In this document: one piece after another, positions 4,187-63,640 of the stretch
How positions within the stretch are numbered: position 1 is the stretch's first letter
How the letters are laid out: every line of letters begins with the position of its first letter
Assembly (NCBI GenBank): GCA_900317295.1
Contig: ONGB01000003.1
Span: forward strand, 12,245 to 76,244
Direction: 5' to 3'
Length of the DNA: 64,000 bases
Origin: an uncultured Erysipelotrichaceae bacterium
Lineage (GTDB): Bacteria; Bacillota_I; Bacilli_A; RFN20; CAG-826
Notes under the pieces: model-generated
Databases searched by the model: none
Told to the model about the DNA's origin: nothing
The model's input: the letters and a program-made list of their open reading frames with translations, nothing else
Translations under genes and position numbers: made by a program

Positions 4187-6841
4187 TTATTTCGCTTCCT
4201 TCTCGTGGAGGATGCTCGCTTGGGCCGCGGCAAGGCGGGCAAGCGGGACGCGGAAGGGCGAGCAAGAGACGTAGTCGAGACCGACTTCATCATAGAACAT
4301 GATGGAGGCGGGGTCGCCACCGGTCTCGCCGCAGACACCGATGAGGAGGTCCGGGCGGGCGGCGCGGCCGCGCTCGACAGCGATGCGAACGAGTTCGCCG
4401 ACGCCATCGACGTCGATGGTCTGGAACGGATCGAATTCGTAGATCTTCGCGTTGTAGTAGTACGGCAAGAACTGGCCGGAGTCATCACGGGAGAAGCCCA
4501 TGGTGAGCTGGGTGAGGTCGTTGGTGCCGAAGCTGAAGAACTCAGCGTCTTTGGCCAACTTGCCAGCCTGGAGGGCGCCTCTCGGGACCTCGATCATCGT
4601 ACCGACGTGGTAGACGAGCTTCTTGCCCTGCTTCTTGAGTTCGTCTTCGACGGTGTCGACGACGACCTTCTTAGCGAAGAGGTATTCTTTGCTCTCGCCG
4701 GCGAGCGGGATCATGATCTCGGGTTCGACGTCATGGCCGAGCTCTTTGGATGCCTTGATGGCGGCCTGGATGATGGCGCGGGCCAACATCGCATAGATTT
4801 CCGGATAAGCAACGCAGAGGCGGACGCCACGGAAGCCCATCATCGGGTTGGCCTGCTGGAGCTGGCCGATGCGATCGATGACCTTCTGTTCGGGGACGCC
4901 GAGCTTCGAGGCGAGGGCCTTGATGTTCTCTTTGTCGCCGATTTCCGGGAGGAATTCGTGTAGAGGCGGGTCGAGGAGGCGGATGTTAACCATCGAATCC
5001 GGGTTGGCGATGTACATATCGTAGAAGTCGCCAGCGAGGAACGGACGGATGCGCTCCAAGGCAGCTTCGCGCTGTTCGGTGGTATCAGAGAGAATCATCG
5101 AACGCATATTGAGGATGCGATCCTCGGCGAAGAACATACGCTCAGTGCGGCAGAGGCCGATGCCTTCGGCGCCGAAGCGGCGGGCATTGTGGGCATCTTC
5201 CGGCGTGTTGCAGTTCGCGCGGACTTTGAGACGGCGATACTTGTCGGCCCAATCCATAAGACGGCCGAAGTCACCACCCAAGTCGGCGGGGACCATCTTG
5301 ATTTCGCCTTCGTAGACGAGACCGGTGGAGCCGTTGACGGAGAGGACATCGCCTTCGTGGAAGACGCGATCGCCGACCTTGACGGTCTTGGCTTCTTCGT
5401 TAACGACGATTTCGGTGGCGCCGGCGACGCAGCACTTACCCATGGAGCGGGCGACGACGGCGGCGTGGGAAGTCATACCGCCGCGAGCGGTGAGAATGGC
5501 TTCGGAGTTGACCATGCCGATGATGTCCTCAGGAGAGGTTTCGGCGCGGACCAAGACGACTTTCTTGCCGGCATCATGCCAGGCTTTGCATTCTTCGGCG
5601 GTGAAGACGATCTGACCGGTGCCAGCGCCCGGGGAGGCGGGGAGACCGTGGATAACAGGTTCGTGCTTCTTGAGATCGGCGTCGTCGAAGGTCGGGTGGA
5701 GCAGGTCGTTGAGCTGCTTCGGCTCGACGCGGCAGACGGCGGTCTTTTCGTCGATGAGGCCTTCATCAACGAGGTCGCAGGCGATCTTCAAAGCGGCGCG
5801 AGCGGTGCGCTTGCCGTTGCGGGCCTGCAAGAAGTAGAGGGTGCCGCGTTCGATGGTGTATTCCATATCCTGCATATCGTGGAAATAGTTTTCCATGCGG
5901 GTGATGGTGGCCATGAACTCTTTGTAGACCTCGGGCATGCGGCGCGCGAGCTCATCGATGTGCAGCGGGGTGCGGACGCCAGCGACGACGTCTTCGCCCT
6001 GCGCGTTGGGAAGGAATTCGGCGTAGATCTTCTTTTCGCCGGTCGAGGGCGAGCGGGAGAAGGCGACGCCAGTGCCGGAATCTTCGCCCATGTTGCCGAA
6101 GACCATCGACTGGACGTTGACGGCGGTGCCCCATTCGTAGGGGATGCCGTTCATTTGACGATAGACGTTGGCGCGGGGGTTGTCCCAGCTGCGGAAGACG
6201 GCCGCGACGGCCTCTTTGAGCTGAACATACGGATCCTGCGGGAATTCCTCGCCAAAGACCTTCTTGTAGTATTCCTTGTAGGCTTTGACGAGCTCTTTGA
6301 GCTCTTCGGTCTTGACTTCGGTGTCAAGCTTGTAGCCCTTCTTTTCCTTGAGTTCGTCGAGCATCTTGTCCATCTCGGTGCGCGGATGGCCTTTGGCGAT
6401 GTTCGTGAACATCAAGCAGAAGCGGCGATAGGAGTCCCAAGCGAACCTCTCATTGCCGGAAGCTTCGGCGAGTTCCAAGACGGTCTTGTCGTTGGTGCCG
6501 AGGTTGAGGATGGTGTCCATCATGCCCGGCATGGACGTGCGGGCGCCGGAACGGACGGAGACGAGCAAGGGCATGCCGCTGCCGCCGCCGAATTTCTTGC
6601 CATTCAGTTTTTCGATTTCGTGGACGTGGGCCACGATGTCCTCCCAAACGAAATCGGGGATGGCTTTCCCGGATTCGTAGTAGAGCGTGCAGGCTTCAGT
6701 GGAGATGGTGAAACCGGCGGGGATGTTAACCCCGGCGGCGGTCATCTCGGCCAGACCGAAGCCCTTTCCGCCAAGGATTTCCTTGCCGAGTTTGAGCTCG
6801 TGGGCTTCCTTGAAGGAGTAGACGTACTTCTTATCTGCCAT
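4187..6841 (-). CDS. ppdK: pyruvate, phosphate dikinase
   Basis: 884-aa ORF, MADKKYVYSF...GGKGFGLAEM, central phosphohistidine region (GGMTSHAAVVARSMGKCCV) and C-terminal PEP-utilizing domain; GGAGGAAAAAATG RBS. Confidence 0.9.
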   Translation of the reverse strand: MADKKYVYSFKEAHELKLGKEILGGKGFGLAEMTAAGVNIPAGFTISTEACTLYYESGKAIPDFVWEDIVAHVHEIEKLNGKKFGGGSGMPLLVSVRSGARTSMPGMMDTILNLGTNDKTVLELAEASGNERFAWDSYRRFCLMFTNIAKGHPRTEMDKMLDELKEKKGYKLDTEVKTEELKELVKAYKEYYKKVFGEEFPQDPYVQLKEAVAAVFRSWDNPRANVYRQMNGIPYEWGTAVNVQSMVFGNMGEDSGTGVAFSRSPSTGEKKIYAEFLPNAQGEDVVAGVRTPLHIDELARRMPEVYKEFMATITRMENYFHDMQDMEYTIERGTLYFLQARNGKRTARAALKIACDLVDEGLIDEKTAVCRVEPKQLNDLLHPTFDDADLKKHEPVIHGLPASPGAGTGQIVFTAEECKAWHDAGKKVVLVRAETSPEDIIGMVNSEAILTARGGMTSHAAVVARSMGKCCVAGATEIVVNEEAKTVKVGDRVFHEGDVLSVNGSTGLVYEGEIKMVPADLGGDFGRLMDWADKYRRLKVRANCNTPEDAHNARRFGAEGIGLCRTERMFFAEDRILNMRSMILSDTTEQREAALERIRPFLAGDFYDMYIANPDSMVNIRLLDPPLHEFLPEIGDKENIKALASKLGVPEQKVIDRIGQLQQANPMMGFRGVRLCVAYPEIYAMLARAIIQAAIKASKELGHDVEPEIMIPLAGESKEYLFAKKVVVDTVEDELKKQGKKLVYHVGTMIEVPRGALQAGKLAKDAEFFSFGTNDLTQLTMGFSRDDSGQFLPYYYNAKIYEFDPFQTIDVDGVGELVRIAVERGRAARPDLLIGVCGETGGDPASIMFYDEVGLDYVSCSPFRVPLARLAAAQASILHEKEAK

Positions 6842-6967
6842 TTTTTCCTCCTAATGACATATGTGGGGCATTACCCCGACGTCGATAATGATAACACAGC
6901 CACCCTTGTTCTTAGAACAAGAAAGAGAAAAAAGAAGTGAAAAGGGATTATTGGTAAGGCAAAAGCC

Positions 6968-8251
6968 TTATTTAAGGATGTATTCGACGGCTTCTAGCGT
7001 GGTGGAGAAGGTGGCTTCAGGCACGGCGTCCGCGCACTTTTTCGCTGGACGGGGATCCCCGCAGGTGACGAGGAGGGGGTGCGCCCCGGCGTTGATCCCG
7101 GTTTGCACGTCTTGGAGGGTATCGCCGATGAAATACGATTTCGTTAGGTCGATGTTGAAGGCGGCTTTGGCCTTTTCTAGCATCCCGGTCTTCGGCTTTC
7201 GGCAGGAACAGGAAATCAAATAAGCATCATCGCCCTTCCCGTGGAAATGTTCTTTCGGGAAATGCGGACAGACATACAAAGCGTCCAAATACGCGCCTTC
7301 CGCCCCGAGCAACTTGCCCATATAGGCATGAATATCGTTGACCTGGGCTAGACTCGCTTCCCCGCGGGCAACGAGGGGTTGGTTGGTGGCACAGATGCAA
7401 AGATAGGGGGATTCATTGATTTTCTTAACGGCTTCCGAGGCGAAAGGGAGCAGGGTCAGCATCTCTGGGCGGACGACATAGTCGCCGAAAACATTGATGG
7501 TCCCATCGCGATCCAAAAAGATGGCCCGTTGAGGGTTCTTGAGGTTGCGGGCCTCCATGCGGCCGGAAAGATAGTCTTTTTCCGCGGGGATTAGGCCCTC
7601 GTCATCCAAACGATGGACGATTTCTGGGGAAGAGTAGTAGCAGGCGAGGCCCGATTCGACGGTCGGGAGCAACACCCCGTCATGGAACGGGAAGGCCTCT
7701 TCTTCCTCAGGGTCGAAGGTTTCGGATAGGTCAGAAGACACGAAGCATAGATCAAGTGGCACGAGGTTTTGATAATTAAAGTCCGCGCGCCCATCCGCGC
7801 CTTTGGGCATGATGGCGGAGACGTGTTTCCCATCCGGGGAGAGCGCGATGTCTTCCGCTTCCGGATAAGGCTTTGGCTGTGCGAAAAGCGTTAAGAAGCC
7901 ATCGCCTTTGTTATGAGCTTTATAGAAGCGCGAAAAATCAAGGCACGGGAGCAGGTTGCCCGGGACGAACAAAAACCCTCCCAAAGATGCGGCGACTTTG
8001 GCGAGGGAGCCTCCACCTCCTAGGGGCTTCTTGAGATAGACGTATCTGATTTGCTTTCCTTCGGGAAACGAACTCTTATCCGCCCCTTTTGGAAGCAAAA
8101 CGACAATCTCGTCTGCCCCACCATACAAAAGCAGAGAGATTTGGGCCTCCAAAAGCGTTTTCCCTGCGAAAGAAGCGAGGGCGGAGGTTTGCCCATAACC
8201 CGGGGTTTTAAAATCGGGAGAATAGGCAGCGTGATCTAGAAGGATTTTCAT
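6968..8251 (-). CDS. bifunctional-type protein: sugar-phosphate nucleotidyltransferase-like domain fused to D,D-heptose-1,7-bisphosphate phosphatase (GmhB-like HAD-IIIA) domain
   Basis: C-terminal half has FLDRDGTIN, CATNQP, CPH..H...CSCRKPKTGM (Zn site) and IGDTLQDVQTGINAGA motifs of GmhB; N-terminal about 230 aa align to the RmlA/HddC NTP-transferase fold (AGKTLLE...DEIVVL, PLGGGGSL, GDGFLTL). Confidence 0.6.
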   Translation of the reverse strand: MKILLDHAAYSPDFKTPGYGQTSALASFAGKTLLEAQISLLLYGGADEIVVLLPKGADKSSFPEGKQIRYVYLKKPLGGGGSLAKVAASLGGFLFVPGNLLPCLDFSRFYKAHNKGDGFLTLFAQPKPYPEAEDIALSPDGKHVSAIMPKGADGRADFNYQNLVPLDLCFVSSDLSETFDPEEEEAFPFHDGVLLPTVESGLACYYSSPEIVHRLDDEGLIPAEKDYLSGRMEARNLKNPQRAIFLDRDGTINVFGDYVVRPEMLTLLPFASEAVKKINESPYLCICATNQPLVARGEASLAQVNDIHAYMGKLLGAEGAYLDALYVCPHFPKEHFHGKGDDAYLISCSCRKPKTGMLEKAKAAFNIDLTKSYFIGDTLQDVQTGINAGAHPLLVTCGDPRPAKKCADAVPEATFSTTLEAVEYILK

Positions 8252-30662: not shown

Positions 30663-30699
30663 CTTATGTTTCTCCTCTTGCTAGTAGTATAATTGGCTT

Positions 30700-30815
30700 G
30701 GGAATGATGTCTCCCATCTAGAAATAGAGAACCGCAATGAAGTGCTGATGACGTCTATGACTTGTTTTGTCATAGAAATCAGCGCTTTTGTTTCTATGGC
30801 AGATGGGAGGTATCG
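30700..30815 (+). promoter_or_regulatory. structured 5' leader of the cation:proton antiporter gene with alternative hairpins and SD sequestration (riboswitch/attenuator-like)
   Basis: TATAAT at 30688-93; TCTCCCATCT (30710-19) pairs with AGATGGGAGG (30800-09), which contains the SD 7 nt before the ATG; inside, GTCATAGA can pair either with upstream TCTATGAC or downstream TTTCTATGGC (mutually exclusive hairpins). Confidence 0.45.
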
Positions 30816-53410: not shown

Positions 53411-53820
53411 TGATAACGTGGGGACGTACTGGTTTTGATTCGGAAGGTCGGTCATCGACTGCAGTGGTCTGGTAGACCCTAAGACCGAAAAACAATAACT
53501 GACAACTCTGTCAAACCCTGGATGGTGCGTAACAACGCCGTCCTCGCTCGCGCCTAATTAGAGCACCCCTCGATGGGTTCCCGCCAAGCGGGACGAGCAC
53601 GTCCGCCCCTCATTTCTCGCCTATTGAGGGAGCGGGCGCAACACCAAGGCGATAAGCGCGTAGCGTTGGCTAGCGCGTAACGTCGAAAACCTTACCAGCC
53701 ATGGGTCATGCGCTTTGGGGCGTATCTTCAACCATGACCCGAGACTTGAAACGCCATAAACTGTAGGCGTCGATGGTTAGTCTTCCGAAGACCGGAGTTC
53801 GACTCTCCGCGTCTCCACCA
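53411..53820 (+). ncRNA. ssrA: transfer-messenger RNA (tmRNA)
   Basis: 5' GGGGACG pairs with 3' CGUCUCCACCA (acceptor stem with G3.U), T-arm GGAGUUCGACUCUCC, ends in CCA; starts and ends like B. subtilis tmRNA; tag ORF GAC(53492)...GCC-TAA(53546-48) preceded by AAUAACU as in B. subtilis; followed by terminator 53834-53866. Confidence 0.93.
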
Positions 53821-53833
53821 CGTTGAATCAAAA

Positions 53834-53866
53834 AGCCGAGCACTTGATTGTGTTCGGCTTTTGCTT
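53834..53866 (+). terminator. intrinsic terminator of ssrA
   Basis: AGCCGAGCAC-TTGATT-GTGTTCGGCT 10-bp stem (one G.U) followed by TTTT. Confidence 0.8.
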
Positions 53867-53875
53867 TCTGATCCT

Positions 53876-54064
53876 TTAATCGGCCAGCCTGAATTCATTC
53901 ACTTGAAGGGTGAAGACATCTATTGTCTTGCCATTTGAATCAAAGAGCTCAACTTCATAAAGCTCGCCCGGACGCCAGATTTCAACGACTGCGCCCTGGG
54001 TGCCCTTTTTAACCGACCCTTTGTCAACGGTTGTAACAACCGAATCAAACAGTTTAATTTCCAT
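53876..54064 (-). CDS. small DUF4926-like protein (putative antitoxin/immunity partner)
   Basis: 62 aa; KKGTQGAVVEIWRPGELYEVELFDSNGKTIDVFTL pattern resembles the DUF4926 family; 11 nt downstream of the 166-aa gene on the same strand. Confidence 0.45.
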   Translation of the reverse strand: MEIKLFDSVVTTVDKGSVKKGTQGAVVEIWRPGELYEVELFDSNGKTIDVFTLQVNEFRLAD

Positions 54065-54075
54065 AAAAACTCCTT

Positions 54076-54576
54076 TTACTTGATGTAGTTGGTAATCATT
54101 CGAGGTTCTTTTGAAGTTTTTTCAATGCCATAGACGGCGACTACCGTTGCGGTTCTTCCGTTTGCCCCGGTTACTTCTATTCCATATGCGTATTTTATTA
54201 CACCGAATTTGTTTTCGTGTATTTTCAATAGACTCGCTGTTCCAGAAATAATCGCGACATGAATCTGGTTTTTCAAAGAAAGGTAGTTTTCCTTTGTATA
54301 CCCTAGCAGTTTTTCGTACAAAACCGCTTTGTCCCTCCCATTTGGGTTATTAAAATCAAGCGAATACTTTAGAAACTTTTCGTCAGGAGTAATTGCCTTC
54401 TTATAATTGGGCATTATTCGACTGGTTGATCCTTCCTTGGGATAGGTTTTAACATCGCTAATTTGCGAATGGCCCTTTTTGTAATTAGATGAAGCGTCTT
54501 TTTCACCACCTCCATATCTTCCGTTTGACGAATCATAGGGCTGGAGCTGATGCCCTCCGCCGATTTTCACTGGCAT
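54076..54576 (-). CDS. hypothetical protein, Gly-rich N-terminus + about 110-aa C-terminal domain (putative toxin-like partner)
   Basis: 166 aa; no match to a housekeeping family; lies in a low-GC islet next to tmRNA, tightly coupled to the DUF4926-like gene. Confidence 0.4.
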   Translation of the reverse strand: MPVKIGGGHQLQPYDSSNGRYGGGEKDASSNYKKGHSQISDVKTYPKEGSTSRIMPNYKKAITPDEKFLKYSLDFNNPNGRDKAVLYEKLLGYTKENYLSLKNQIHVAIISGTASLLKIHENKFGVIKYAYGIEVTGANGRTATVVAVYGIEKTSKEPRMITNYIK

Positions 54577-54664
54577 AAAGAAGCCTCCTTTTTATAGCCA
54601 ATAATCTAGAAGGAGATTGGTTGAGTTGACAATCTATGGGAAGTTGATGAAAAATTGATGTGAA

Positions 54665-55837
54665 ATGGACGAAAAAACAGAAAATCATAAATTCAACATC
54701 GGAGCTTTTTTGAAAGTGCTGTTTCAGTACCTATCAGACAAATACACAAAAGCTACCGCCACGAACGAGCTGTTTGACCCGTTTTTTAAATACATCGACA
54801 GCTCCTACGATTTTGATAAGGCCATCGTCAGCAAACTCGCTTCGCACAAAATCAATATTCCACAAAAGGTTATCAAGGCGGTTTTGAAATTCGGTAATGC
54901 GAGCAAAAAGGAGTTCGAACGCGCGATTCAAGACATCACTGATGAAAAGTTTTTTCTTTTTCTGGAAGGCTTAGCGGAAGAAATCGAAACACACAAGACC
55001 GAAAGCGCCAAAGAGCTCTCGAGGGTTTTGGATTTTTATAAAGGAAGCGAGGTGAGCGATTTTCTAAATGCGGCGTTTGTTTATGCTGTCCTTTCTCCCA
55101 ACGCGCCAAGCGAGAAAAAACAAAAAACGGGAAGACCAAAAGGAGGCACACACGAATACATTTTTTATCTCTCTCAGACAGAAAAAGAGGAACAGGCCAA
55201 GGTCTTAAAAAACAAAATCCTCAAAAGCGTAAAAAAGTTGACGCTCGACGATCTTCGCGACATTTTGGCTTTAATGACATATACAACGGTTTGTTTTTCA
55301 AAAGAAGAAAAAGTGAAAGCCTCCCTAAGATTTCTTCAAGGATGGAAAGTCCTTTATGGTTTGACCCCGACCCAAGAGCTGTTACAAACAATAAAGGACA
55401 TAGGTAGGTTCAGCGAACCGGATGTTCGTGAAATATTCGTGGGATGGGAGGAAGCGGTTTATGAGGCCAATGATACGAAAAAGGCCAACCATCTAAAAAA
55501 CCTTTTTACCCGAGCAAAAAGAATGAATAGTTTTGCCAACATATCCAAATACGCAGACAGTTTGGTTGATGAAGAAGACTTAGGAAAATCCGGTGCGTTC
55601 TCTGCTTCTTTAGTGAGAAACAAATTCTTTCTCCCAAACTTTTTGGATCATTTGACTAGTTCGTTATGGAGTTATTGTTGCTCGGTGGCTAGGCTGGCGC
55701 ACAAAGCGGGAGTCCAAAAGGATTTTGAGAAAAAGCTTGACGATATGATGGCGGTGACTCCTAAAAACAAAACAACAACCGAGCGGATTGAATACCTCAG
55801 GGAGCTAGCAACACAAGAGATTTCGCGACATTTCTGA
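54665..55837 (+). CDS. hypothetical protein (390 aa, helical, K/E-rich), low-GC accessory gene
   Basis: Long ORF in an AT-rich segment, no Walker or other recognizable motifs. Confidence 0.45.
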   Translation: MDEKTENHKFNIGAFLKVLFQYLSDKYTKATATNELFDPFFKYIDSSYDFDKAIVSKLASHKINIPQKVIKAVLKFGNASKKEFERAIQDITDEKFFLFLEGLAEEIETHKTESAKELSRVLDFYKGSEVSDFLNAAFVYAVLSPNAPSEKKQKTGRPKGGTHEYIFYLSQTEKEEQAKVLKNKILKSVKKLTLDDLRDILALMTYTTVCFSKEEKVKASLRFLQGWKVLYGLTPTQELLQTIKDIGRFSEPDVREIFVGWEEAVYEANDTKKANHLKNLFTRAKRMNSFANISKYADSLVDEEDLGKSGAFSASLVRNKFFLPNFLDHLTSSLWSYCCSVARLAHKAGVQKDFEKKLDDMMAVTPKNKTTTERIEYLRELATQEISRHF

Positions 55838-56069
55838 CCCGCCAATTAAGAAATGTGCAACGACCAACTTGCAATAAAAGTCCAATCTTTTTTCGCAAGG
55901 ATATTGAAAACAAAAACCTTTAAAAAATAAAAAAGAAATTTTTTGAAAATATTTATCGCGCGTGTTTCCTATATATAAAAAGATTAAAGGTGATTTTTAA
56001 GAAAAAAGTTCGATGATTCCTAAGTTTTTGCACATTTTGAAAATTTTTAAAAAAATGTGGAAAAAAGTG

Positions 56070-56097
56070 TTGACATGCGTTTCGAGAGGCGTATAGT
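56070..56097 (+). promoter_or_regulatory. strong sigma-A type promoter (TTGACA-16-TATAGT) driving the large ncRNA candidate
   Basis: -35 TTGACA 56070-75, -10 TATAGT 56092-97; AT-rich UP-like region with inverted repeat CACATTTT/AAAATGTG at 56039-56064. Confidence 0.65.
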
Positions 56098-56103
56098 AAT
56101 GTG

Positions 56104-57568
56104 TTCCGCGGGGAACGCTGAGCTTCGGCTCTGCGAAACCGCGAAACCTCAGATCTTGGTTCTACAAGTTCTGTGAAGGGAATGCACGATGCCCCCAGGG
56201 CTCCTTGCCTCAAAGGTCGGCTGCCTCGAAAGAGACAAAGGCGATGCGGAATCTTGACCCCGCACCTCTACGGAGCGCTTCTCCGTTCGGTAAACCGATA
56301 AAACGAAGGTGGACGGTTAAACCTCTTGGCTACGGCCTTCTGGTGGACCCGCTCACAAAGGGCTCCTCTTCTTGGGTTGAGGAAAGCCACCGCCGAAGCG
56401 CTACCCTGGCGGCCAGTGAACTGGTGAGAAAGGGCGCTGCGAGAAAGCTTGAAAAAGCCAACCTCGCGATCTGGAGACAACGGACTTCGCCGAATCTCCA
56501 AGCGGAATTCATCCCTCCGCCTCGTGCACGAGAAAAAGCGATGATGCCCCGCGTAAACGCTTGCCAAAGCGGTAGCAACGGGCGAAGGGCAACCCTCGGA
56601 AGGAATCCTGCCTTCCCCAGTAAACTGGGAAAACCAAGGGTGACGGGCCAAACCGGACCATCAATCCCGGTCAACCGTCTAAGCCAGAGGAAGCGATTCC
56701 TCTCCGTGGAACACCCCATCCACCCGATAATCATCGCGAAACATGGGACCCAGCAAGGACCTAACCCCGCAAGGGAACGGACGACCTGGTCAACGGGCTG
56801 CATCGAAAGATGATGTCCGCGGCGCTTCTGCCCCGCCGCCAAGTAGAACTTGGATAAAGTCTCAGGTGGATGAACCGCAAGGTTCGAAGAGGTGAAAAAC
56901 CTCCGGCCCCGAGAGAAGGCCCCGGTAAACCGATAACTTCCCTCTCCGACCGCATCATGGCATGGCCCAATCCGCCCTCTGCCGCGGAAGGTAGTCACCT
57001 ACATCAGGTGCGACGATAGCCTCGCCGTCAGTGAAACTGGAAATGAGGCTGCGAATCCGTCGGTTCCCTTCGGGGCTCAGGCTGATCCGTGAACTCCTAG
57101 GAATTCATAACTAGGATGGTGCCAAAAGAGGCTCGGCGCGCGGTAAACCGCTGGAAAAGCCTCGAACCCAGACGCAAGCCTGGGGGAGATCAGAGACGCA
57201 AGTCCCTGAAGGAAGTCGTTCCACCCTGCAATTCGTGAAGTCGGAACGTGGTAGAGATACCTGAGCGAACGAAGATGTACCTCAGGATCGACATCGAGAC
57301 CTACTAGGAGCGATCCGAAATAGGCCTAGGAAGATAAGAGTTCTTCTCAGCGGTACACCGCGAAATCAAAAACTTGTTCCTGAATGCCTTCCTTGATCAA
57401 GCAAGGTCCGCGGTAAGGATCGATCATCCTCGGATGAGTGGTTGGTTGGAATCTCCCACGAGGTAAACCTCGAATACGAAATATCCCGACGCAATTGGAG
57501 CTATACGAGTCGTTAAACAGGAAAGCCAAGCGACACCACGCAGCGATGCGTGGCGTTTTCTTTTTTAG
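56104..57568 (+). ncRNA. candidate large (about 1.47 kb) GC-rich structured noncoding RNA of unknown class
   Basis: Bounded by a consensus promoter and an intrinsic terminator (CCACGCA-GCGA-TGCGTGG + TTTTCTTTTTT at 57535-57568); no T-runs inside; only overlapping Arg/Pro-rich low-complexity ORFs on both strands; many hairpins capped by UUCG/GNRA loops (GAGC-UUCG-GCUC 56119-30, CCC-UUCG-GGG 57067-76, several GCGAAA); CGGUAAACCG occurs 3 times. Confidence 0.55.
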
Positions 57569-57571
57569 GGC

Positions 57572-58093
57572 TTATTTGTCGATGTAGAACACCCGTCCGG
57601 GCTTTCTTTCTTTCGCCGGAGCGGGTTGGCCATAGCCTAAGGCGCAGTGGCCAATGCCTTCATAATCCCCTTCAATCCCGTGGGCTTTGAGCCAGGCCTT
57701 GCCTTCTTCGGAATCGAATTCCTCTTTCGCACGATGGATCCAAATCGATTGGACGCCTTCCGCTTGGGCGGCGTTCATGAGGTTGCCTAAAGCCAACGAG
57801 CCATCATAGATGTAGCAGAACGCGTCTTTCCTGGCCAAGACGATGACGATGACCGGGGCGCCATAGAAGGGGTCAATGTCTCCTCTTCCTAGGATGCCCG
57901 CGTTAAGCTTGCGCAGCCATTCCCTTTCTTTCTTATCGCGGACCACGACGAAGATCGGGCTTTGGGAGCCGACGCCGGTGGGGGCGTATAACCCCGCTTC
58001 GAGGATGCGGTCGAGTTTCTCTTGCTCCACCGTTTTCTCTGGATCGAAAGCGCGGCAGCTCCTCCGCGTGAGTAAGGCTTCTAATGCTTCCAT
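57572..58093 (-). CDS. nitroreductase-family protein
   Basis: 173 aa; LLTRRSCRAF N-terminal motif and FMN-binding fold motifs. Confidence 0.8.
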   Translation of the reverse strand: MEALEALLTRRSCRAFDPEKTVEQEKLDRILEAGLYAPTGVGSQSPIFVVVRDKKEREWLRKLNAGILGRGDIDPFYGAPVIVIVLARKDAFCYIYDGSLALGNLMNAAQAEGVQSIWIHRAKEEFDSEEGKAWLKAHGIEGDYEGIGHCALGYGQPAPAKERKPGRVFYIDK

Positions 58094-58149: not shown

Positions 58150-58845
58150 ATGGATTTCTCTGGCTGGGAAAAACTGTCTCTCGTCGACTTCGACGACAAC
58201 CTCACGACCACTCTTTTCATGGCGGGCTGCCCATTCCGCTGCCCCTTTTGCCATAACGGGGACTTGGTCCTTCATCCGGAAAACGCCCCGAAGATCCCGT
58301 GGGAAGAGATCCTAGACTATCTAAAAAAGCGTAGAGGCATGTTAGACGCCGTCTGCGTCTCCGGTGGCGAGCCGACCTTGATGCCCGACCTCAAAGAGAA
58401 AATCCGCGAGATCAAAGAGCTTGGCTATATCGTCAAATTGGATTCCAATGGCTGGCGGCCCGATTTATTGAAAGGGCTTATCGAAGAGAAGCTCGTCGAC
58501 CACATCGCGATGGATATCAAGAACTCCAAAGAGAAATATTCCGCGACCGCGGGGGTGGAAGTCGATATGAGCCAAATCACCCAATCCGTGGACCTATTGA
58601 TGCATTCGGGGATCAGCTATGAATTCCGCACGACGATCATTGAGGAATTCCATGACGAAGACGACATCCGCCGCATCGGGGAATGGATTAAGGGGGCAAA
58701 GATGTATCGGTTGCAAAGATTCATCGACGGGGAAACCTGCATCTACCGTGGCCTTCATCCCATTAGCTTAGATAAGGCCGAAGGATTCATAGAGATTCTC
58801 AAACCCTATATCGAAAATGTCGATTTAAGGGGATACGACAAATAA
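58150..58845 (+). CDS. nrdG: anaerobic ribonucleoside-triphosphate reductase activating protein (radical SAM)
   Basis: 231 aa; CPFRCPFCHN CX3CX2C cluster motif in NrdG context; convergent with trxB-nrdD. Confidence 0.8.
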   Translation: MDFSGWEKLSLVDFDDNLTTTLFMAGCPFRCPFCHNGDLVLHPENAPKIPWEEILDYLKKRRGMLDAVCVSGGEPTLMPDLKEKIREIKELGYIVKLDSNGWRPDLLKGLIEEKLVDHIAMDIKNSKEKYSATAGVEVDMSQITQSVDLLMHSGISYEFRTTIIEEFHDEDDIRRIGEWIKGAKMYRLQRFIDGETCIYRGLHPISLDKAEGFIEILKPYIENVDLRGYDK

Positions 58846-58846
58846 A

Positions 58847-58886
58847 AAAGAGCGGAATTCCGATGCATGGGTCCGCTCTTTTCGTT
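58847..58886. terminator. bidirectional terminator between nrdG (+) and trxB (-)
   Basis: AAAAAGAGCGGA ... TCCGCTCTTTTCG hairpin. Confidence 0.6.
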
Positions 58887-59793
58887 ATTTCGAATTCAGG
58901 TAATTGGCCGCGCTCATCGCCGCGATCGCCCCATCGCTGGTGGCGGTGATGACCTGGCGGATTTTCTTCACGCGGCAATCACCCGCGGCGTAGATCCCAG
59001 GGGTCTTCGTCGCCATGCCTTCGTCAACGACGATGAAGCCTTTATCTAGATCCACCCAGGAGGCGAAACGATCGTTATCGGGGATCTGGCCGATCGCGAT
59101 GAAGCAACCGTCGCAGGGGAAGGTCTTAAGTTCCCCGGTCTTCTTGTCTTTGAAGGTGACCCCGACGAGCTCTTCTTCGCCTTCGAACCGCACGGCTTCA
59201 TACTCATGGACGAAGTCGATGTTTTGGATTTGATTCATCCGTTTGATGAGGATGTCATCGGCGAAGAATTTGTCGAAAAGAGTGACCACCTGCACGTGTT
59301 TTGAGGTCTCCGAGAGCATGATCGCATATTGAAGGGCGGTGTTCGCGTCCCCGATGAGGAGGACGTCTTTCCCCGTGTAGAAAGCCCCATCGCAGACGGC
59401 GCAGTAGGAGATGCCTTTCCCGGTGAGTTCCTCTTCGCGGTCCAGCCCGAGTTTGCGGTGCTTGCATCCGGTAGCGATGATGATGGTCTTGCTCTCTTTC
59501 TCGCCATAATCGGTGATGACCTTGAAGCCTTCTTCGGTCTTCGTAACGCTTTGGACATCACAGACATCGAATTCCACCCCTAGCGCGCTGATCTGCTCAA
59601 AAAGATGATCGGAGAAATCTAGCCCCGAGATCGAGGCGACGGAGGGGAAGTTCTCTAGGCGCGGGCTTTCGGCGATTTGCCCGCCGAAGGCTTCGCGTTC
59701 GAGGATGAGGACGCTTTTGCCGGCGCGCAATAGATATAAGGCCGCGGTCATTCCCGCGGGGCCGCCGCCGATGACGATGCTATCGTAGATCAT
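58885..59793 (-). CDS. trxB: thioredoxin-disulfide reductase
   Basis: 302 aa; FAD GGGPAG motif, redox-active CAVC, NADPH-binding GGGDSA-like motif. Confidence 0.85.
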   Translation of the reverse strand: MIYDSIVIGGGPAGMTAALYLLRAGKSVLILEREAFGGQIAESPRLENFPSVASISGLDFSDHLFEQISALGVEFDVCDVQSVTKTEEGFKVITDYGEKESKTIIIATGCKHRKLGLDREEELTGKGISYCAVCDGAFYTGKDVLLIGDANTALQYAIMLSETSKHVQVVTLFDKFFADDILIKRMNQIQNIDFVHEYEAVRFEGEEELVGVTFKDKKTGELKTFPCDGCFIAIGQIPDNDRFASWVDLDKGFIVVDEGMATKTPGIYAAGDCRVKKIRQVITATSDGAIAAMSAANYLNSK

Positions 59794-59862
59794 GGTTGTC
59801 GTTCCTTTCTTAGTGAGAAGAAAGCCCTCTCCGTTTCGGGAAAGGGCTTGAGGTTTCTGGGC

Positions 59863-62244
59863 TTACGCCTTCTTCGATTCGATGAAGCCCTTGATGTTGC
59901 TGGCGTTCTCGTAGATCTTGTAGCCCTCTCCGTCAGGAGCGACGAGGGTCGGGGCTTGCTTGATTCCGAAGGAGTTCGTCAAATCGCGGTTGGTGGCCGC
60001 GTCGATGTTCTGATAGGCGATGCCGGCTTTGTCGAGGAGCATCTTCGCCATCTTGCAGTTCGGGCAGGTCGGGGAGGTGAAGAGCATCACTTCGGTGACC
60101 TTCGGCGCTTCCTTGTTCACGTGGTCATGACCGCATGCGCAGGAGGCTCCGTCATGGGCGTGGGGCATCTGGGAGTCGCGGATTTCGTAGGTTTTGCGCA
60201 TCTTGAACTCCTGGACTTTGCCCGCGTTCCAGTTCTTGACCGGGCGGTAGTAGCCGGTGATGCGGGAGTAGACCTCAGCCTCTTTGCCGCAGATCGGGCA
60301 CTTCCATTGCTCGCCGCTGAGATAGCCATGGTCGGCGCAGACCGAGTAGGTCGGGGACATGGTGTAGTAGGGGAGCTTGTAGTTCTCCGCGATCTTGCGG
60401 ACGAGCTTCATGCAGGATTCCCAGTTCGGGAGGCGCTGGCCAAGGAAGGCATGGAAGACGGTGCCGGAGGTATAGAGGGTCTGGAAGCGGTCTTCGATGT
60501 CGAGGGCGTTGAAGATGTCATCCGTGAAGCCGACGGGGAGGTGGCTCGAATTGGTGTAATACGGGGTCTCGCCGTTTTTGGAGGCGGTGATGATGTCCGG
60601 GTAACGCTCCTTGTCGTGCTTGGCAAGACGGTAGGAGGTGGATTCCGCCGGGGTGGCCTCGAGGTTATAGAGGTCGCCATAACGCTCCTGGTAGTCGGAG
60701 AGTTTATTCCTCATGTGGTTGAGGACCTCTTCGGTGAATTCCTGGGCGGCCGGCTGAGTGAGGTCGGCGCGGATCCAACGGGCATTGAGGCAGGCTTCGT
60801 TCATCCCAACCAAACCGATGGTGGAGAAGTGGTTGTTGAAGGTGCCGAGGTAATGCTTGGTGTAGGGGTAGAGGCCAGCTTCCAAGAGCTTGGAGATGGT
60901 CTGCCTCTTAACGCGGAGCGAACGGGCGGAGATGTCCATCAAGCGATCGAGGCGGGCATAGAAGTCTTCTTTGTCGGTCGCGAGGTAGGCGATGCGCGGC
61001 ATGTTGATCGTGACGACGCCGACGGAGCCGGTGGATTCGCCAGAACCGAAGTAGCCGCCGCTCTTTTTGCGGAGCTCGCGGAGGTCGAGGCGGAGACGGC
61101 AGCACATCGAACGGACATCGCTAGGCTTCATGTCGGAGTTGATGTAGTTGGAGAAGTAGGGGGTGCCGAACTTCGCGGTCATCGTGAAGAGAAGCTTGTT
61201 GTTCTCGGTCGCGGACCAGTCGAAGTCGCGGGTGATGGAATAGGTCGGGATCGGGTATTGGAAGCCGCGGCCATTCGCGTCGCCTTCGATCATGACTTCG
61301 AGGAAGGCTTTGTTGACCATCGCCATTTCTTCTTTGCAATCGGCGTAGGTGAAGGGCATTTCCTTGCCGCCCACGATCGCGGGGAGGTTGGCCATGTCAT
61401 CGGGGACGGTCCAGTCGAGGGTGACGTTGGTAAACGGCGCCTGGGTGCCCCAGCGGGACGGGGTGTTGACTCCATAGATGAAGGACTGGATGCACTGCTT
61501 GACCTCTTTGTAGGAGAGGTTATCGACTTTGACGAACGGAGCGAGATAGGTATCAAAAGAAGAGAATGCCTGCGCGCCCGCCCACTCGTTCTGCATGATG
61601 CCGAGGAAGTTGACCATCTGGTTGCAGAGGGTCATCAAGTGGTTGGCGGGGGAGGAAGTGATCTTCCCGGGGACGCCGCCTAGGCCTTGCTGGATGAGCT
61701 GCTTCAGCGACCAACCGGCGCAATAGCCGGTGAGCATGGAGAGGTCATGGATATGGATGTCCGCGTTGCGGTGGGCGTCGCCGATCTCCTTGTCATAGAT
61801 CTCGGAGAGCCAGTAGTTCGCGGTGACGGCGCCGGAGTTGGAGAGGATGAGGCCGCCGACGGAATAGGTGACGGTGGAATTCTCTTTGACGCGCCAGTCG
61901 GAGATGCGGAGGTAGTTATCAACCACGTTCTTGAAGTCGAGATTGGTGTTCTTGACTTGGCGGAGCGCCGCATGCTTGGAACGATATTCCATGTAGGACT
62001 TGGCCACATCGACGTAGTTGGCCTGGATCAAGGCGATTTCGACAGCGTCCTGGATGTCTTCGACCGCGACTTTCTCATCCTTGATCTTGTTGTTGAAGAT
62101 CGAGGTCACGCGGAGGGCGAGGAGCTCGACGATGTCGGGGGTGCAATCCTTGTGTTCGGCGAGGAAAGCACGCTCGATGGCGCTTTCGATTTTCTTGAGG
62201 TCGAACGGCACGACGGTGTTGTCTCTTTTGATGACTTGAAGCAT
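59863..62244 (-). CDS. nrdD: anaerobic ribonucleoside-triphosphate reductase (class III) with C-terminal glutaredoxin/NrdH-like CxxC domain
   Basis: 793 aa; N-terminal ATP-cone, glycyl-radical motif RITGYY, Zn-ribbon CPICG; His/Cys-rich linker HAHDGASCACGHDH, then about 80-aa thioredoxin-fold domain MLFTSPTCPNCKMAKMLLDKAGIAYQNID...; AAGGAG RBS. Confidence 0.85.
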   Translation of the reverse strand: MLQVIKRDNTVVPFDLKKIESAIERAFLAEHKDCTPDIVELLALRVTSIFNNKIKDEKVAVEDIQDAVEIALIQANYVDVAKSYMEYRSKHAALRQVKNTNLDFKNVVDNYLRISDWRVKENSTVTYSVGGLILSNSGAVTANYWLSEIYDKEIGDAHRNADIHIHDLSMLTGYCAGWSLKQLIQQGLGGVPGKITSSPANHLMTLCNQMVNFLGIMQNEWAGAQAFSSFDTYLAPFVKVDNLSYKEVKQCIQSFIYGVNTPSRWGTQAPFTNVTLDWTVPDDMANLPAIVGGKEMPFTYADCKEEMAMVNKAFLEVMIEGDANGRGFQYPIPTYSITRDFDWSATENNKLLFTMTAKFGTPYFSNYINSDMKPSDVRSMCCRLRLDLRELRKKSGGYFGSGESTGSVGVVTINMPRIAYLATDKEDFYARLDRLMDISARSLRVKRQTISKLLEAGLYPYTKHYLGTFNNHFSTIGLVGMNEACLNARWIRADLTQPAAQEFTEEVLNHMRNKLSDYQERYGDLYNLEATPAESTSYRLAKHDKERYPDIITASKNGETPYYTNSSHLPVGFTDDIFNALDIEDRFQTLYTSGTVFHAFLGQRLPNWESCMKLVRKIAENYKLPYYTMSPTYSVCADHGYLSGEQWKCPICGKEAEVYSRITGYYRPVKNWNAGKVQEFKMRKTYEIRDSQMPHAHDGASCACGHDHVNKEAPKVTEVMLFTSPTCPNCKMAKMLLDKAGIAYQNIDAATNRDLTNSFGIKQAPTLVAPDGEGYKIYENASNIKGFIESKKA

Positions 62245-62869
62245 GGCTTGTCTCCTTGATGATGATTTTCCAAGAGGGGCTAAGAAAGGTCAGGACCCCT
62301 TTCCCTCTTATGTCAGGCAATAGCCCCCTTCGGGGCTGTGCTCGATAATTATGGTGAATGGAGAAGCAAAATCAAGGGCAATGCGCAGCCATGAAAAATG
62401 GGGTCGAAAAGTGCCCCTTGAAAATTCTTTTCCACATTTTTTCCACACGACATCGGAACATTTTGAAAACTCGTTTTGAAAAGGGGCGCGAAAAAGGCGA
62501 AAAAACAGCCTATTTTTTATATAAAAAATGTTGTCAGTGTCCAAACATTTCATAAAAAAACCTGGAACCATCGAAAGTTTTCGTTTTTGCACTTTTTGAC
62601 AGAGCCCTATACCAACAAACTACTAACTTGACGATCCGCGGAAAAAAGAGACCTCCTGGGAAACCCTAGGCTTTTCCACATTTTCGAACCGCCGATTTCT
62701 TAAATTGACGGAAAAACGGAACGCCGTTTTGCCCCTTTTTATCGACGGGTCGGCTTAAGGTGAAGAAAAAACCGTTTTCGGAAAAAATTTTCTTAACGAA
62801 ACTTAAACCCCCGTTTGCTTTATGCAAAATGGGTTTTATTATATTTGCCGTATCCTAAAGGAGTGTCTT

Positions 62870-63640
62870 ATGACAAAAGAAGAAAAGAAAGCCGCGAAGG
62901 CCCAAAGAAGGGCCGAGCGCAAAGAAAAAGGAAAAGGTCTCTGGGCCGAATTCAAGGAGTTCATTAACAAGGGCAACGCCTTCATGCTTGCCGTTGGCGT
63001 CGTCATCGGCGGCGCGTTCTCCGCGATCGTCAACGCGTTCGTCAACATCCTGACCTCGCTCGCCACCTGGCCGGTCCCTGGCGGACTTGCCGGTCTCGTG
63101 AGCCCGCTCCCCGCGATCACGGATGTCCAAAAAGGCCTTGGCGCTGGTGCCCATCTTGATATCGGCATCGGCCAGCAATTCGCCGCTGCTGACCTCCTCG
63201 ACAAAGCCGATGCCCTCGCCACCAAGCTTTATGGCGCTGGCTATAGCGATGTCCAGTTCGTCGACGCCAAAGGGATGTTGACCTCCAACTACACCCTCTA
63301 TGGCAAGGTCTACTACTACAACGCCACCGCCCTCATCAACTGGGGCACCCTCCTCAACGCCGTCATCGCCTTCGTCATCATCGCCGTCGTCCTCTTCATC
63401 ATCGTGAAGGTCGCCAACAGCGCCGCCGCGAAGAAGGCCCAGATGGAAGAAGAAGCCCTCGAGCGCTACTACCTCAAGCATCCGGAAGAAAGGCCGGCCC
63501 CCGAGGATCCCGCGAAGCCGAAGCCCACGACCGAAGAACTCTTGGCCTCCATCCTTGTCGAGCTTAAGAAAGCCAATGGCGAAGAAGCTCCCGAGCCCGA
63601 AGAGATCGTCGCTCCGGAAACCGAAGCCGCCGAGGAATAA
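62870..63640 (+). CDS. mscL: large-conductance mechanosensitive channel MscL homolog with expanded periplasmic loop and long acidic/Pro-rich C-tail
   Basis: Start at MTKEEKK (AGGAG 8 nt upstream); EFKEFINKGNAFMLAVGVVIGGAFSAIVNAFV matches the MscL TM1 signature; about 115 aa between TM1 and TM2 (usual about 30); 256 aa total. Confidence 0.7.
   Translation: MTKEEKKAAKAQRRAERKEKGKGLWAEFKEFINKGNAFMLAVGVVIGGAFSAIVNAFVNILTSLATWPVPGGLAGLVSPLPAITDVQKGLGAGAHLDIGIGQQFAAADLLDKADALATKLYGAGYSDVQFVDAKGMLTSNYTLYGKVYYYNATALINWGTLLNAVIAFVIIAVVLFIIVKVANSAAAKKAQMEEEALERYYLKHPEERPAPEDPAKPKPTTEELLASILVELKKANGEEAPEPEEIVAPETEAAEE

Follow-up and report, generated by a model that had tools for sequence, protein, structure and literature searches.

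In a 64,000-nucleotide stretch of DNA from an uncultured Erysipelotrichaceae bacterium (assembly GCA_900317295.1, contig ONGB01000003.1, positions 12,245 to 76,244 of the forward strand; termed the window here), a class III ribonucleotide reductase (RNR), NrdD, carries a glutaredoxin-fold redoxin (Grx) domain fused to its C-terminus, and the fusion gene (nrdD-grx) is followed directly by the gene for a flavoprotein disulfide reductase and then, on the opposite strand, by the gene for the activase NrdG. Based on sequence comparison and gene order, we favor the reading that these genes form a three-gene class III RNR module, in which electrons would pass from the flavoprotein to the tethered Grx domain and from there to the NrdD disulfide. 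The window is assigned to Candidatus Enteromonas, and a 100%-identical NrdD-Grx protein is present in Candidatus Enteromonas metagenome-assembled genomes.

The sample for comparison was obtained with a species-level scan of GTDB (one genome per species; TCPNCK pattern), which yielded confirmed relatives of the C-terminal region, at least 582 in number. The 80 best of these provided the loci for fusion, synteny, and neighbor counts; the 71 full-length fusions among those loci were used for motif and linker statistics, and 77 fusion-adjacent reductase orthologues along with 120 metagenomic homologues for motif counts in the reductase. The profile for the locus scan was built from a 12-sequence alignment, the 133-sequence Grx alignment being too diverse there. 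A search of representatives at 50% identity returned no full-length fusions; fused and unfused NrdDs likely share representatives at this level, so this search is unusable for fusion counts.

Because the NrdD equivalog model NF006126 (684 positions) is matched end to end by residues 2-688 only, the protein can be described as an ordinary NF006126 NrdD with ∼105 extra C-terminal residues. The NRDD family models were passed in each instance, including PF13597 (cutoff 26 bits), NF006126 (cutoff 548), and TIGR02487 (531 bits, cutoff 326). Cysteines of a Zn-ribbon (C636-x-x-H and C649-x-x-C652), located N-terminal to the glycyl-radical motif, are conserved in the 71 fusions, as is the glycyl-radical motif. 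The open reading frame (ORF) and its parts are listed below, in window coordinates.

59863..62244, minus strand: nrdD-grx fusion ORF, 793 amino acids plus stop codon (ORF, Pfam, NCBIfam)
61969..62238, minus strand: ATP-cone, residues 3-92 (Pfam PF03477, 77.6 bits)
60187..61884, minus strand: class III RNR barrel and glycyl-radical domain, residues 121-686 (PF13597, 641 bits; NF006126, 1119 bits)
61720..61722, minus strand: betaA cysteine Cys175, counterpart of T. maritima C125 (alignment to 4coi)
61096..61107, minus strand: finger loop M380-C381-C382-R383, a double Cys plus Met (aligned with T. maritima S328-C-C-R331, in which the cysteines are C329-C330)
60658..60660, minus strand: Glu529, which corresponds to T. 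maritima E495 and is proposed to supply the proton in formate-independent NrdD (PMC9669993; alignment)
60253..60255, minus strand: Gly664, the glycyl-radical site in YSRITGYYRP (motif conserved in the 71 fusions)
60091..60186, minus strand: linker, residues 687-718 (32 amino acids), predicted to be disordered, rich in Glu, His, and Cys (AlphaFold2)
60139-60141, minus strand: linker C702
60133-60135, minus strand: linker C704
59866..60090, minus strand: glutaredoxin-fold redoxin domain, residues 719-793 (75 amino acids; PF00462, AlphaFold2, Foldseek)
60055-60066, minus strand: redoxin active site C727-P-N-C730 (with a cis-Pro at residue 765)

The initial annotation had described a thioredoxin-fold CPNC redoxin fused to the C-terminus of NrdD, and Pfam, AlphaFold2, and Foldseek agree on its presence. 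The interval to which the fusion had been assigned, 59863-60140, corresponds to residues 702-793 plus the stop codon, and the two strings that had been quoted for the linker and the redoxin are found in the protein, HAHDGASCACGHDH at residues 695-708 and MLFTSPTCPNCKMAK at residues 720-734. Glutaredoxin (PF00462) was identified at residues 719-756 with 35.3 bits (gathering score 22.9; E 1.4e-8), and Thioredoxin (PF00085) was marginally over its threshold. In the AlphaFold2 model (residues 686-793, with the 133-sequence alignment as input), residues 720-792 adopt the beta-alpha-beta-alpha-beta-beta-alpha arrangement of a thioredoxin fold, with a predicted local distance difference test (pLDDT) score of 94-98 for the block, and CPNC starts helix 1. 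The nearest structures in a Foldseek comparison with the PDB are NrdH-redoxins (C. glutamicum 4fiw, with a template modeling (TM) score of 0.74 and a root-mean-square deviation of 2.0 Å, and M. tuberculosis 4hs1), thioredoxins, and PDI domains. Among 133 homologues, conservation of TCPNC and APTL is 90% or higher. The domain belongs neither to the classical glutathione (GSH)-type glutaredoxins nor to the NrdH family. It does not reach the classical Grx equivalogs (TIGR02181, 30 bits, cutoff 90; NF007923, 26 bits, cutoff 129), and direct reading of the sequence found no GSH-type motifs: the active site is CPNC and not CPYC, and strand 4 is followed by NASNIKGF, with no stretch of the GG-x-DD type. 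Similarly, TIGR02194 (NrdH; cutoff 85.75) gives only 32 bits, and CVQC and WSGFRP were absent by direct reading; the likeness to NrdH is in the fold only.

Preceding the redoxin fold are 34 residues with a pLDDT of 59-73 and no secondary structure in the AlphaFold2 model. Across the 71 fusions, the linker varies in sequence and in length (28-49 amino acids), and its composition is 16% Glu, 7.1% His (core, 2.0%), and 6.8% Cys (core, 1.7%). Five of the linkers have no Cys, 25 have one, 26 have two, and 15 have at least three; a C-x(0-2)-C pair occurs in 38 of them. The His/Cys-rich character that had been noted for the linker is therefore a real enrichment but not a conserved motif, given the variable length and sequence and the five Cys-free cases.

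Active-site residues of NrdD were numbered by HMMER alignment to solved structures (T. maritima 4coi and P. copri 8p23). The betaA Cys motif, TGYCAGW, occurs in 70 of the 71 fusions, while the finger-loop motif RSMCCRLR and the Glu529 motif NLEATPA occur in all 71; along with RITGYY and TCPNCK, these motifs are essentially invariant across the full-length fusions. In the formate-type NrdD of P. copri, the loop reads M-G-C-R and the Glu529 position is occupied by Leu. A third active-site Cys and this Glu together define the NrdD2 type, of which the N. bacilliformis member uses thioredoxin (PMC4493059; PMC9669993; the sources of the NrdD2-defining residues used here), and the window protein has both, with C381-C382 beside C175, and Glu529. 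Its C175, C381-C382, and E529 match T. maritima, and residues diagnostic of strict formate dependence were not found, in agreement with the earlier suggestion of a NrdD of the redoxin-using type. The fusion was seen only on a double-Cys background. It falls outside the “thioredoxin-only” NrdD2 subclades, which have SCCR without Met, as the loop is MCCR in 71 of 71 fusions. An alignment contrasting a Cys pair with a Met at this site had been put forward as a means of telling the two NrdD types apart; the Cys pair is present, but so is the Met, and the dichotomy does not discriminate here. Of the double-Cys class III RNRs, 83% keep the Met as well, and their reductant was left open (Burnim et al., 2022; PMC9669993).

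The gene downstream of nrdD-grx encodes a protein of the thioredoxin reductase (TrxR) family that retains the flavin adenine dinucleotide (FAD) side of these enzymes and has replaced the residues that bind the reduced form of nicotinamide adenine dinucleotide phosphate (NADPH). Its features, and the gene that converges upon it, are as follows.

58885..59793, minus strand: TrxR-family flavoprotein disulfide reductase, 302 amino acids, without NADPH motifs (Pfam, NCBIfam, alignments)
59392..59403, minus strand: redox-active C131-A-V-C134 of the reductase (CA[VLTI]CDG in 77/77 orthologues)
59335..59352, minus strand: G148-D-A-N-T-A153, replacing the GGGDSA/GxGxxA dinucleotide motif (alignment to structures of NADPH-dependent thioredoxin reductases, NTR)
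59263..59283, minus strand: T171-L-F-D-K-F-F177, replacing HRRxxxR, the NADPH 2′-phosphate site (alignment)
58150..58845, plus strand: nrdG, radical S-adenosylmethionine (SAM) activase, 231 amino acids (TIGR02495 NrdG2, 216 bits, cutoff 131)

The reductase aligns end to end with NTR structures at 43-46% identity (7aaw, 232 bits). On its FAD side, the Pyr_redox_2 domain (155 bits), the N-terminal GGGPAG, and C131-AV-C134-DG are intact and conserved in 77 of 77 orthologues. In the dinucleotide region, the NTR sequence V-I-G-G-G-D-S-A becomes L-I-G-D-A-N-T-A, and V-H-R-R-D-x-L-R-A becomes V-T-L-F-D-K-F-F-A. The replacement motifs, GD[AG]N[TS]A and TLFD[KRH]FFA, occur in all 77 orthologues and in all 120 metagenomic homologues, and HRRxxxR in none; because the same change is found throughout both sets, it represents a conserved new motif and not decay. 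The TrxB equivalog model TIGR01292 gives 306.4 bits, under its trusted cutoff of 343.45, and PGAP names the protein only “FAD-dependent oxidoreductase,” while the label on its homologues at JGI is “thioredoxin reductase (NADPH).” In an established classification, GxGxxA and HRRxxxR serve to identify NAD(P)H-dependent TrxB, and proteins lacking these motifs are grouped as non-NTR, probably ferredoxin-dependent FFTR (Anjou et al., 2024; PMC10880999). Judged by this motif criterion, the window reductase is a non-NTR enzyme, for which the name trxB holds loosely only, and it has the feature set of the FFTR type (TrxR fold, CxxC, and no NAD(P)H motifs). The initial annotation had taken the next gene to be a thioredoxin reductase and NADPH to be the start of the relay. 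Family and position stand, but a canonical NADPH-dependent TrxB does not, in view of the replaced motifs and the sub-cutoff TIGR01292 score, and NADPH as the starting point is unsupported, with its motifs replaced in every orthologue examined. No other thioredoxin-fold or TrxR gene is present elsewhere in the 64-kb window.

How often the fusion occurs was a question left by the initial annotation, and all 80 best species-level loci have it (one is cut by a contig end). Because the same fusion recurs in 80 of 80, the nrdD-grx arrangement is not a product of chance. Its hosts are uncultured Bacilli (Enteromonas, Alloenteromonas, Onthovivens, Fiminaster, “Erysipelotrichaceae,” and “Bacillales”) and uncultured Clostridia/Christensenellales, from gut and rumen genomes. 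The Grx domain is also present in all of more than 120 clusters formed at 90% identity (82-100% identical to the window protein). A TrxR-like gene lies directly downstream on the same strand in 77 of the 80 loci, with a median spacing of ∼1-2 nt and many stop/start overlaps. The earlier placement of nrdG on the opposite strand and convergent holds beyond the window: among the 60 loci in which nrdG was found, 58 have it convergent and right behind the reductase gene. No other family is consistently linked to the module in the 80 loci; only MscL and housekeeping genes recur.

The fusion also occurs in viral contigs (IMG/VR), in 15 of 18 loci. Three viral NrdD-Grx genes, L097 (2278-6261), L105 (2098-6249), and L092 (2746-6267), encode proteins of 1174-1384 amino acids with intein-like insertions exactly at the catalytic cysteines: one ends “...FVHN|CAGWSLK” before the betaA Cys (C175 in the window), and another, located at the first MCCR cysteine, starts with “SDVRSM|CVLPNTMVW.” In locus L088, nrdD is broken into several pieces.

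Standalone relatives of the Grx domain are mostly broken fusions, resulting from a scaffold gap (L083), frameshifts (L084), or a contig end (L087), and only L085 is clearly free-standing. In L085, a 90-amino-acid Grx gene (53-325) with an N-terminal MESCC leader is followed 2 nt on by a TrxR gene (327-1232) with GGGNTA and HRRDAYR. In L084, which has a frameshifted nrdD and a Grx (5001-5237), a canonical TrxR gene is found two genes downstream (6696-7604; GGGSTA and HRREAFR), and nrdG is upstream and co-directional. These loci, both outside the main clade, tie this Grx subfamily to TrxR-type reductases generally and support the view that such enzymes are the physiological reductants of the domain. 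In three metagenomic proteins (P0124, P0133, and P0259), a TrxR-like N-terminal piece of 50-180 amino acids runs into a TCPNCK Grx domain, in P0259 without HRR; these could be real TrxR::Grx fusions, providing Rosetta-stone support, or chimeras of assembly or gene calling.

In the relay proposed here, NrdG would, by homology, install the glycyl radical on G664. For each turnover, Cys175 and finger-loop C381 or C382 would provide two reducing equivalents, with Glu529 as the proton source, leaving an active-site disulfide, as expected from the NrdD2 signature. The tethered Grx domain (C727-P-N-C730), positioned just after the glycyl-radical domain on a flexible acidic linker and thereby at high local concentration, would re-reduce this disulfide, a step suggested by the fusion, the synteny, and the precedent of the F. 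ignava Grx-NrdB (PMC6187632). The Cys pair frequent in the linker may serve as a shuttle, in the manner of the C-terminal cysteines of class I/II RNRs. The oxidized Grx domain would then be recharged by the co-transcribed, often translationally coupled flavoprotein, via its FAD and CAVC disulfide, as suggested by the conserved synteny and by the pairing of related Grx domains with TrxR genes elsewhere. Taken together, the fusion and the coupled reductase suggest an MCCR-type NrdD reduced by protein rather than by formate. Because the NADPH-binding residues have been lost, the donor to the flavoprotein is most likely not NADPH; by analogy with FFTR, a low-potential carrier (ferredoxin or flavodoxin) would be the most likely donor, with NADH also possible. 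This is the weakest step, to which motif loss alone points, and a wire free of pyridine nucleotide throughout, from ferredoxin or flavodoxin to the TLFDxFF flavoenzyme, the Grx domain (and then perhaps the linker Cys pair), and the C175/C381 disulfide, is offered as a tentative proposal with less than even chances.

Several observations weigh against parts of this relay. Concerning the donor, no ferredoxin or flavodoxin genes are linked to the module in the 80 loci, where a single CxxCxxCxxxCP ORF was found near it, and the reductase is far closer to the NADPH-type TrxRs than to the solved clostridial FFTRs: as pairwise scores only, NTR 7aaw gives 232 bits, 5j60 gives 137, and the FFTR structures 6gna/6gnc give 103-106. 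In the viral loci, no TrxR-like gene lies within 6 kb, and a dedicated flavoprotein is thus not obligatory for the fusion. A shuttle role for the linker cysteines is neither general nor essential, because five of the 71 linkers have no Cys. Lastly, the invariant Met380, which takes part in formate chemistry in E. coli NrdD, may leave formate-dependent or dual-mode turnover possible (PMC9669993).

The similarity of the reductase to NTRs is also an argument for the relay as first proposed, a self-contained sequence from NADPH to a canonical TrxB, the Grx domain, and NrdD. The end-to-end alignment with bona fide NTRs at 43-46% identity favors it, as do the JGI label and the pairing of related Grx domains elsewhere with genuine NTRs. 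We nevertheless regard canonical NADPH use as unlikely, since all three arginines of HRRxxxR have given way to TLFDxFF, with its conserved hydrophobic residues, and the GGG of the dinucleotide loop to G-D-A, in every one of the 77 orthologues and 120 homologues; the sub-cutoff TIGR01292 score and the avoidance of the TrxB name by PGAP point in the same direction. A separate alternative, in which the flavoprotein is a TrxR-fold ferredoxin/flavodoxin reductase feeding the [4Fe-4S] cluster of NrdG and not a partner of the Grx domain, has in its favor the location of the flavoprotein gene between nrdD and nrdG, as well as the existence of YumC-type TrxR-fold reductases, for which a connection to ribonucleotide reduction has been reported (PMC4626851). 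PDB 3lzw is among the distant structure matches of the flavoprotein. YumC-type enzymes use NAD(P)H and are not known to have a redox-active CxxC. The flavoprotein, in contrast, has the invariant CA[VLTI]CDG that marks disulfide reductases, and its matches to YumC-type structures reach 89 bits compared with 232, so we consider a role in feeding NrdG highly improbable.

An alternative for the enzyme itself is that formate is the turnover reductant, via a Met380/Cys175 thiosulfuranyl route, and that the redoxin and reductase serve in maintenance, either by keeping cysteines of the Zn-ribbon/glycyl-radical domain or of the finger loop reduced for activation by NrdG, or by repair after transient exposure to O2 in the gut. 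The attachment of the redoxin domain directly after the Zn-ribbon/glycyl-radical domain would fit such a role. The thioredoxin system is reported by Padovani et al. (in 2001) to substitute for dithiothreitol in the activation of E. coli NrdD. Met380 is invariant, and MCCR enzymes are regarded as able to use either reductant (Burnim et al., PMC9669993). Yet the extra Cys and Glu529, both missing from formate-type enzymes, are present in every fusion examined, and a stoichiometric, translationally coupled reductase suits turnover better than occasional repair; formate-driven turnover accordingly appears improbable to us, to much the same degree as canonical NADPH use, and the relay from flavoprotein to Grx domain to NrdD remains the reading that we prefer.

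The proposed relay has counterparts in several characterized systems. The NrdD2 enzymes of N. bacilliformis and T. maritima, which operate with thioredoxin, TrxR, and NADPH (Wei et al., 2014, as summarized in PMC4493059 and PMC9669993), have the same betaA Cys, double-Cys loop, active-site Glu, and NrdG activase, and the use of a protein disulfide reductant is proposed to be shared as well. They differ in relying on a separate, general-purpose thioredoxin and in having SCCR, whereas the enzyme described here has a fused C-terminal redoxin, MCCR, and a dedicated neighboring reductase without an NADPH site. The NrdD3 of Methanosarcina barkeri reportedly (work of Wei et al. in 2015) relies on an NrdH-like redoxin together with a ferredoxin:disulfide reductase (FDR). 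Both systems would thus combine a class III RNR with a dedicated redoxin of Grx/NrdH fold and a nearby reductase, although independence from pyridine nucleotide is only proposed for the present one; the M. barkeri reductase is of the iron-sulfur FTR type and its redoxin is unfused, in contrast to the TrxR-fold flavoprotein and fused redoxin found here. NrdD3 also lacks the Met and the Glu, with QCCR in the loop (PMC9669993).

A Grx-fold domain fused to an RNR subunit is also known from Facklamia ignava, where the fused Grx of a Grx::ATP-cone::NrdB protein was shown to be the reductant of the RNR (Rozman Grinberg et al., 2018; PMC6187632). That enzyme is of class I, and its domain is N-terminal, attached to the radical-generating subunit, and GSH-dependent; the one described here is C-terminal and belongs to class III. 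The NrdH-redoxins of class Ib (NrdHIEF) are likewise small Grx-fold redoxins of an RNR, are recharged by thioredoxin reductase, and are the best structural match (4fiw and 4hs1), but these have CVQC and serve a class Ib RNR, compared with CPNC in a domain fused to class III. The reductase, in turn, resembles the FFTR/DTR enzymes of Clostridium and cyanobacteria (PMC10880999; PMC8154056; PMC12796991), which are of low Mr with a TrxR fold and have kept FAD and CxxC and lost GxGxxA/HRRxxxR. Its similarity to them is low, the C-terminal aromatic tail of the cyanobacterial type is absent, and TLFDxFFA is specific to this clade.

Around and between the genes of the module, the following additional features were identified.

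58846..58884, both strands: bidirectional intrinsic terminator in the 39-nt gap between nrdG and the reductase gene, which converge here (each strand folds at ∼-19.6 kcal/mol; z -3.6/-3.4)
59822..59849, minus strand: hairpin of 11 bp, after the stop of nrdD-grx and before the start of the reductase gene (RNA fold -24.8 kcal/mol, z -2.5)
62348..62375, minus strand: promoter-like site TTGATT-16-CATAAT, 5′ of nrdD-grx (weak consensus match)
57572-58093, minus strand: nitroreductase-family gene (Pfam)

The stem of the terminator is bordered by an A-run and a T-run. The hairpin at 59822..59849 was not flagged by terminator prediction and may function in attenuation or in mRNA stability; in many relatives, the two genes overlap at this place. 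Promoter-like sites such as that at 62348..62375 are no more numerous than in shuffled sequence, and nothing convincing as an NrdR box was seen by eye 5′ of nrdD, where no formal test was made. The nitroreductase that the initial annotation placed next to nrdG is present here, but as a neighbor it is not conserved and is incidental; we rejected it as a part of the RNR module, as the gene occurs only in this species (the window and a same-species contig, L001) and is absent from the other 80 loci. Divergent from nrdD is a homologue of MscL (62822-63640, plus strand; 272 amino acids) with a long Ala/Glu/Pro-rich C-terminal extension, and this neighbor recurs 5′ of nrdD-grx in ∼27 of 80 loci.

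Farther from the module, a low-GC island (38-43%, compared with ∼55%; within 53420-56000) comes directly after a tmRNA gene (53420-53820, 105 bits) and contains genes for DUF4926 (53876-54064, minus strand), DUF6883 (54076-54576, minus strand), and a 390-amino-acid hypothetical protein (54665-55837, plus strand). This island resembles a small element that has inserted at ssrA. The region from 56000 to 57500 (∼1.4 kb, 58% GC, with an A-rich plus strand) has only overlapping low-complexity Arg/Pro/Ser ORFs; it is shared with contig L001 and absent from the other 80 loci, and Rfam gave no match in it at gathering thresholds and, at E<=1, only a chance-level mir-287 (24 bits, gathering score 80). 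A fluoride riboswitch (crcB motif) is located at 30691-30764 on the plus strand (37.5 bits, gathering score 34).

Redoxin-dependent class III RNRs (NrdD2 and NrdD3) and Grx-RNR fusions are already known, as is one listed Glutaredoxin:NrdD, from Lachnospiraceae bacterium TWA4 (subclass NrdDd), which Table S1 of PMC6187632 gives without prevalence, partner, or active-site type. Our literature search found no paper on the prevalence, active-site type, or partner reductase of Grx:NrdD fusions. What is new is the conserved module of nrdD-grx, TLFD-type reductase, and convergent nrdG, its broad distribution among uncultured Firmicutes of gut and rumen, the fusion in viral contigs, and the loss of the NADPH site in a dedicated reductase.

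The presence of a fused redoxin and a translationally coupled reductase on an MCCR enzyme is a strong genomic argument for reduction by a protein disulfide and bears on the question of which reductant most double-Cys class III RNRs use; the fusion, as a single polypeptide, is a convenient system for examining this question. The wire without pyridine nucleotide, if true, would correspond, with a bacterial flavoprotein, to the NrdD3-NrdH-FDR system of methanogens, and would also serve as evidence in vivo that redoxin, and not formate, drives the large “MCCR + Glu” majority among double-Cys class III RNRs. Furthermore, knowledge of the donor to the flavoprotein would show how the synthesis of deoxyribonucleoside triphosphates connects to central redox metabolism in the abundant Enteromonas-like Bacilli and Clostridia of the gut and rumen.

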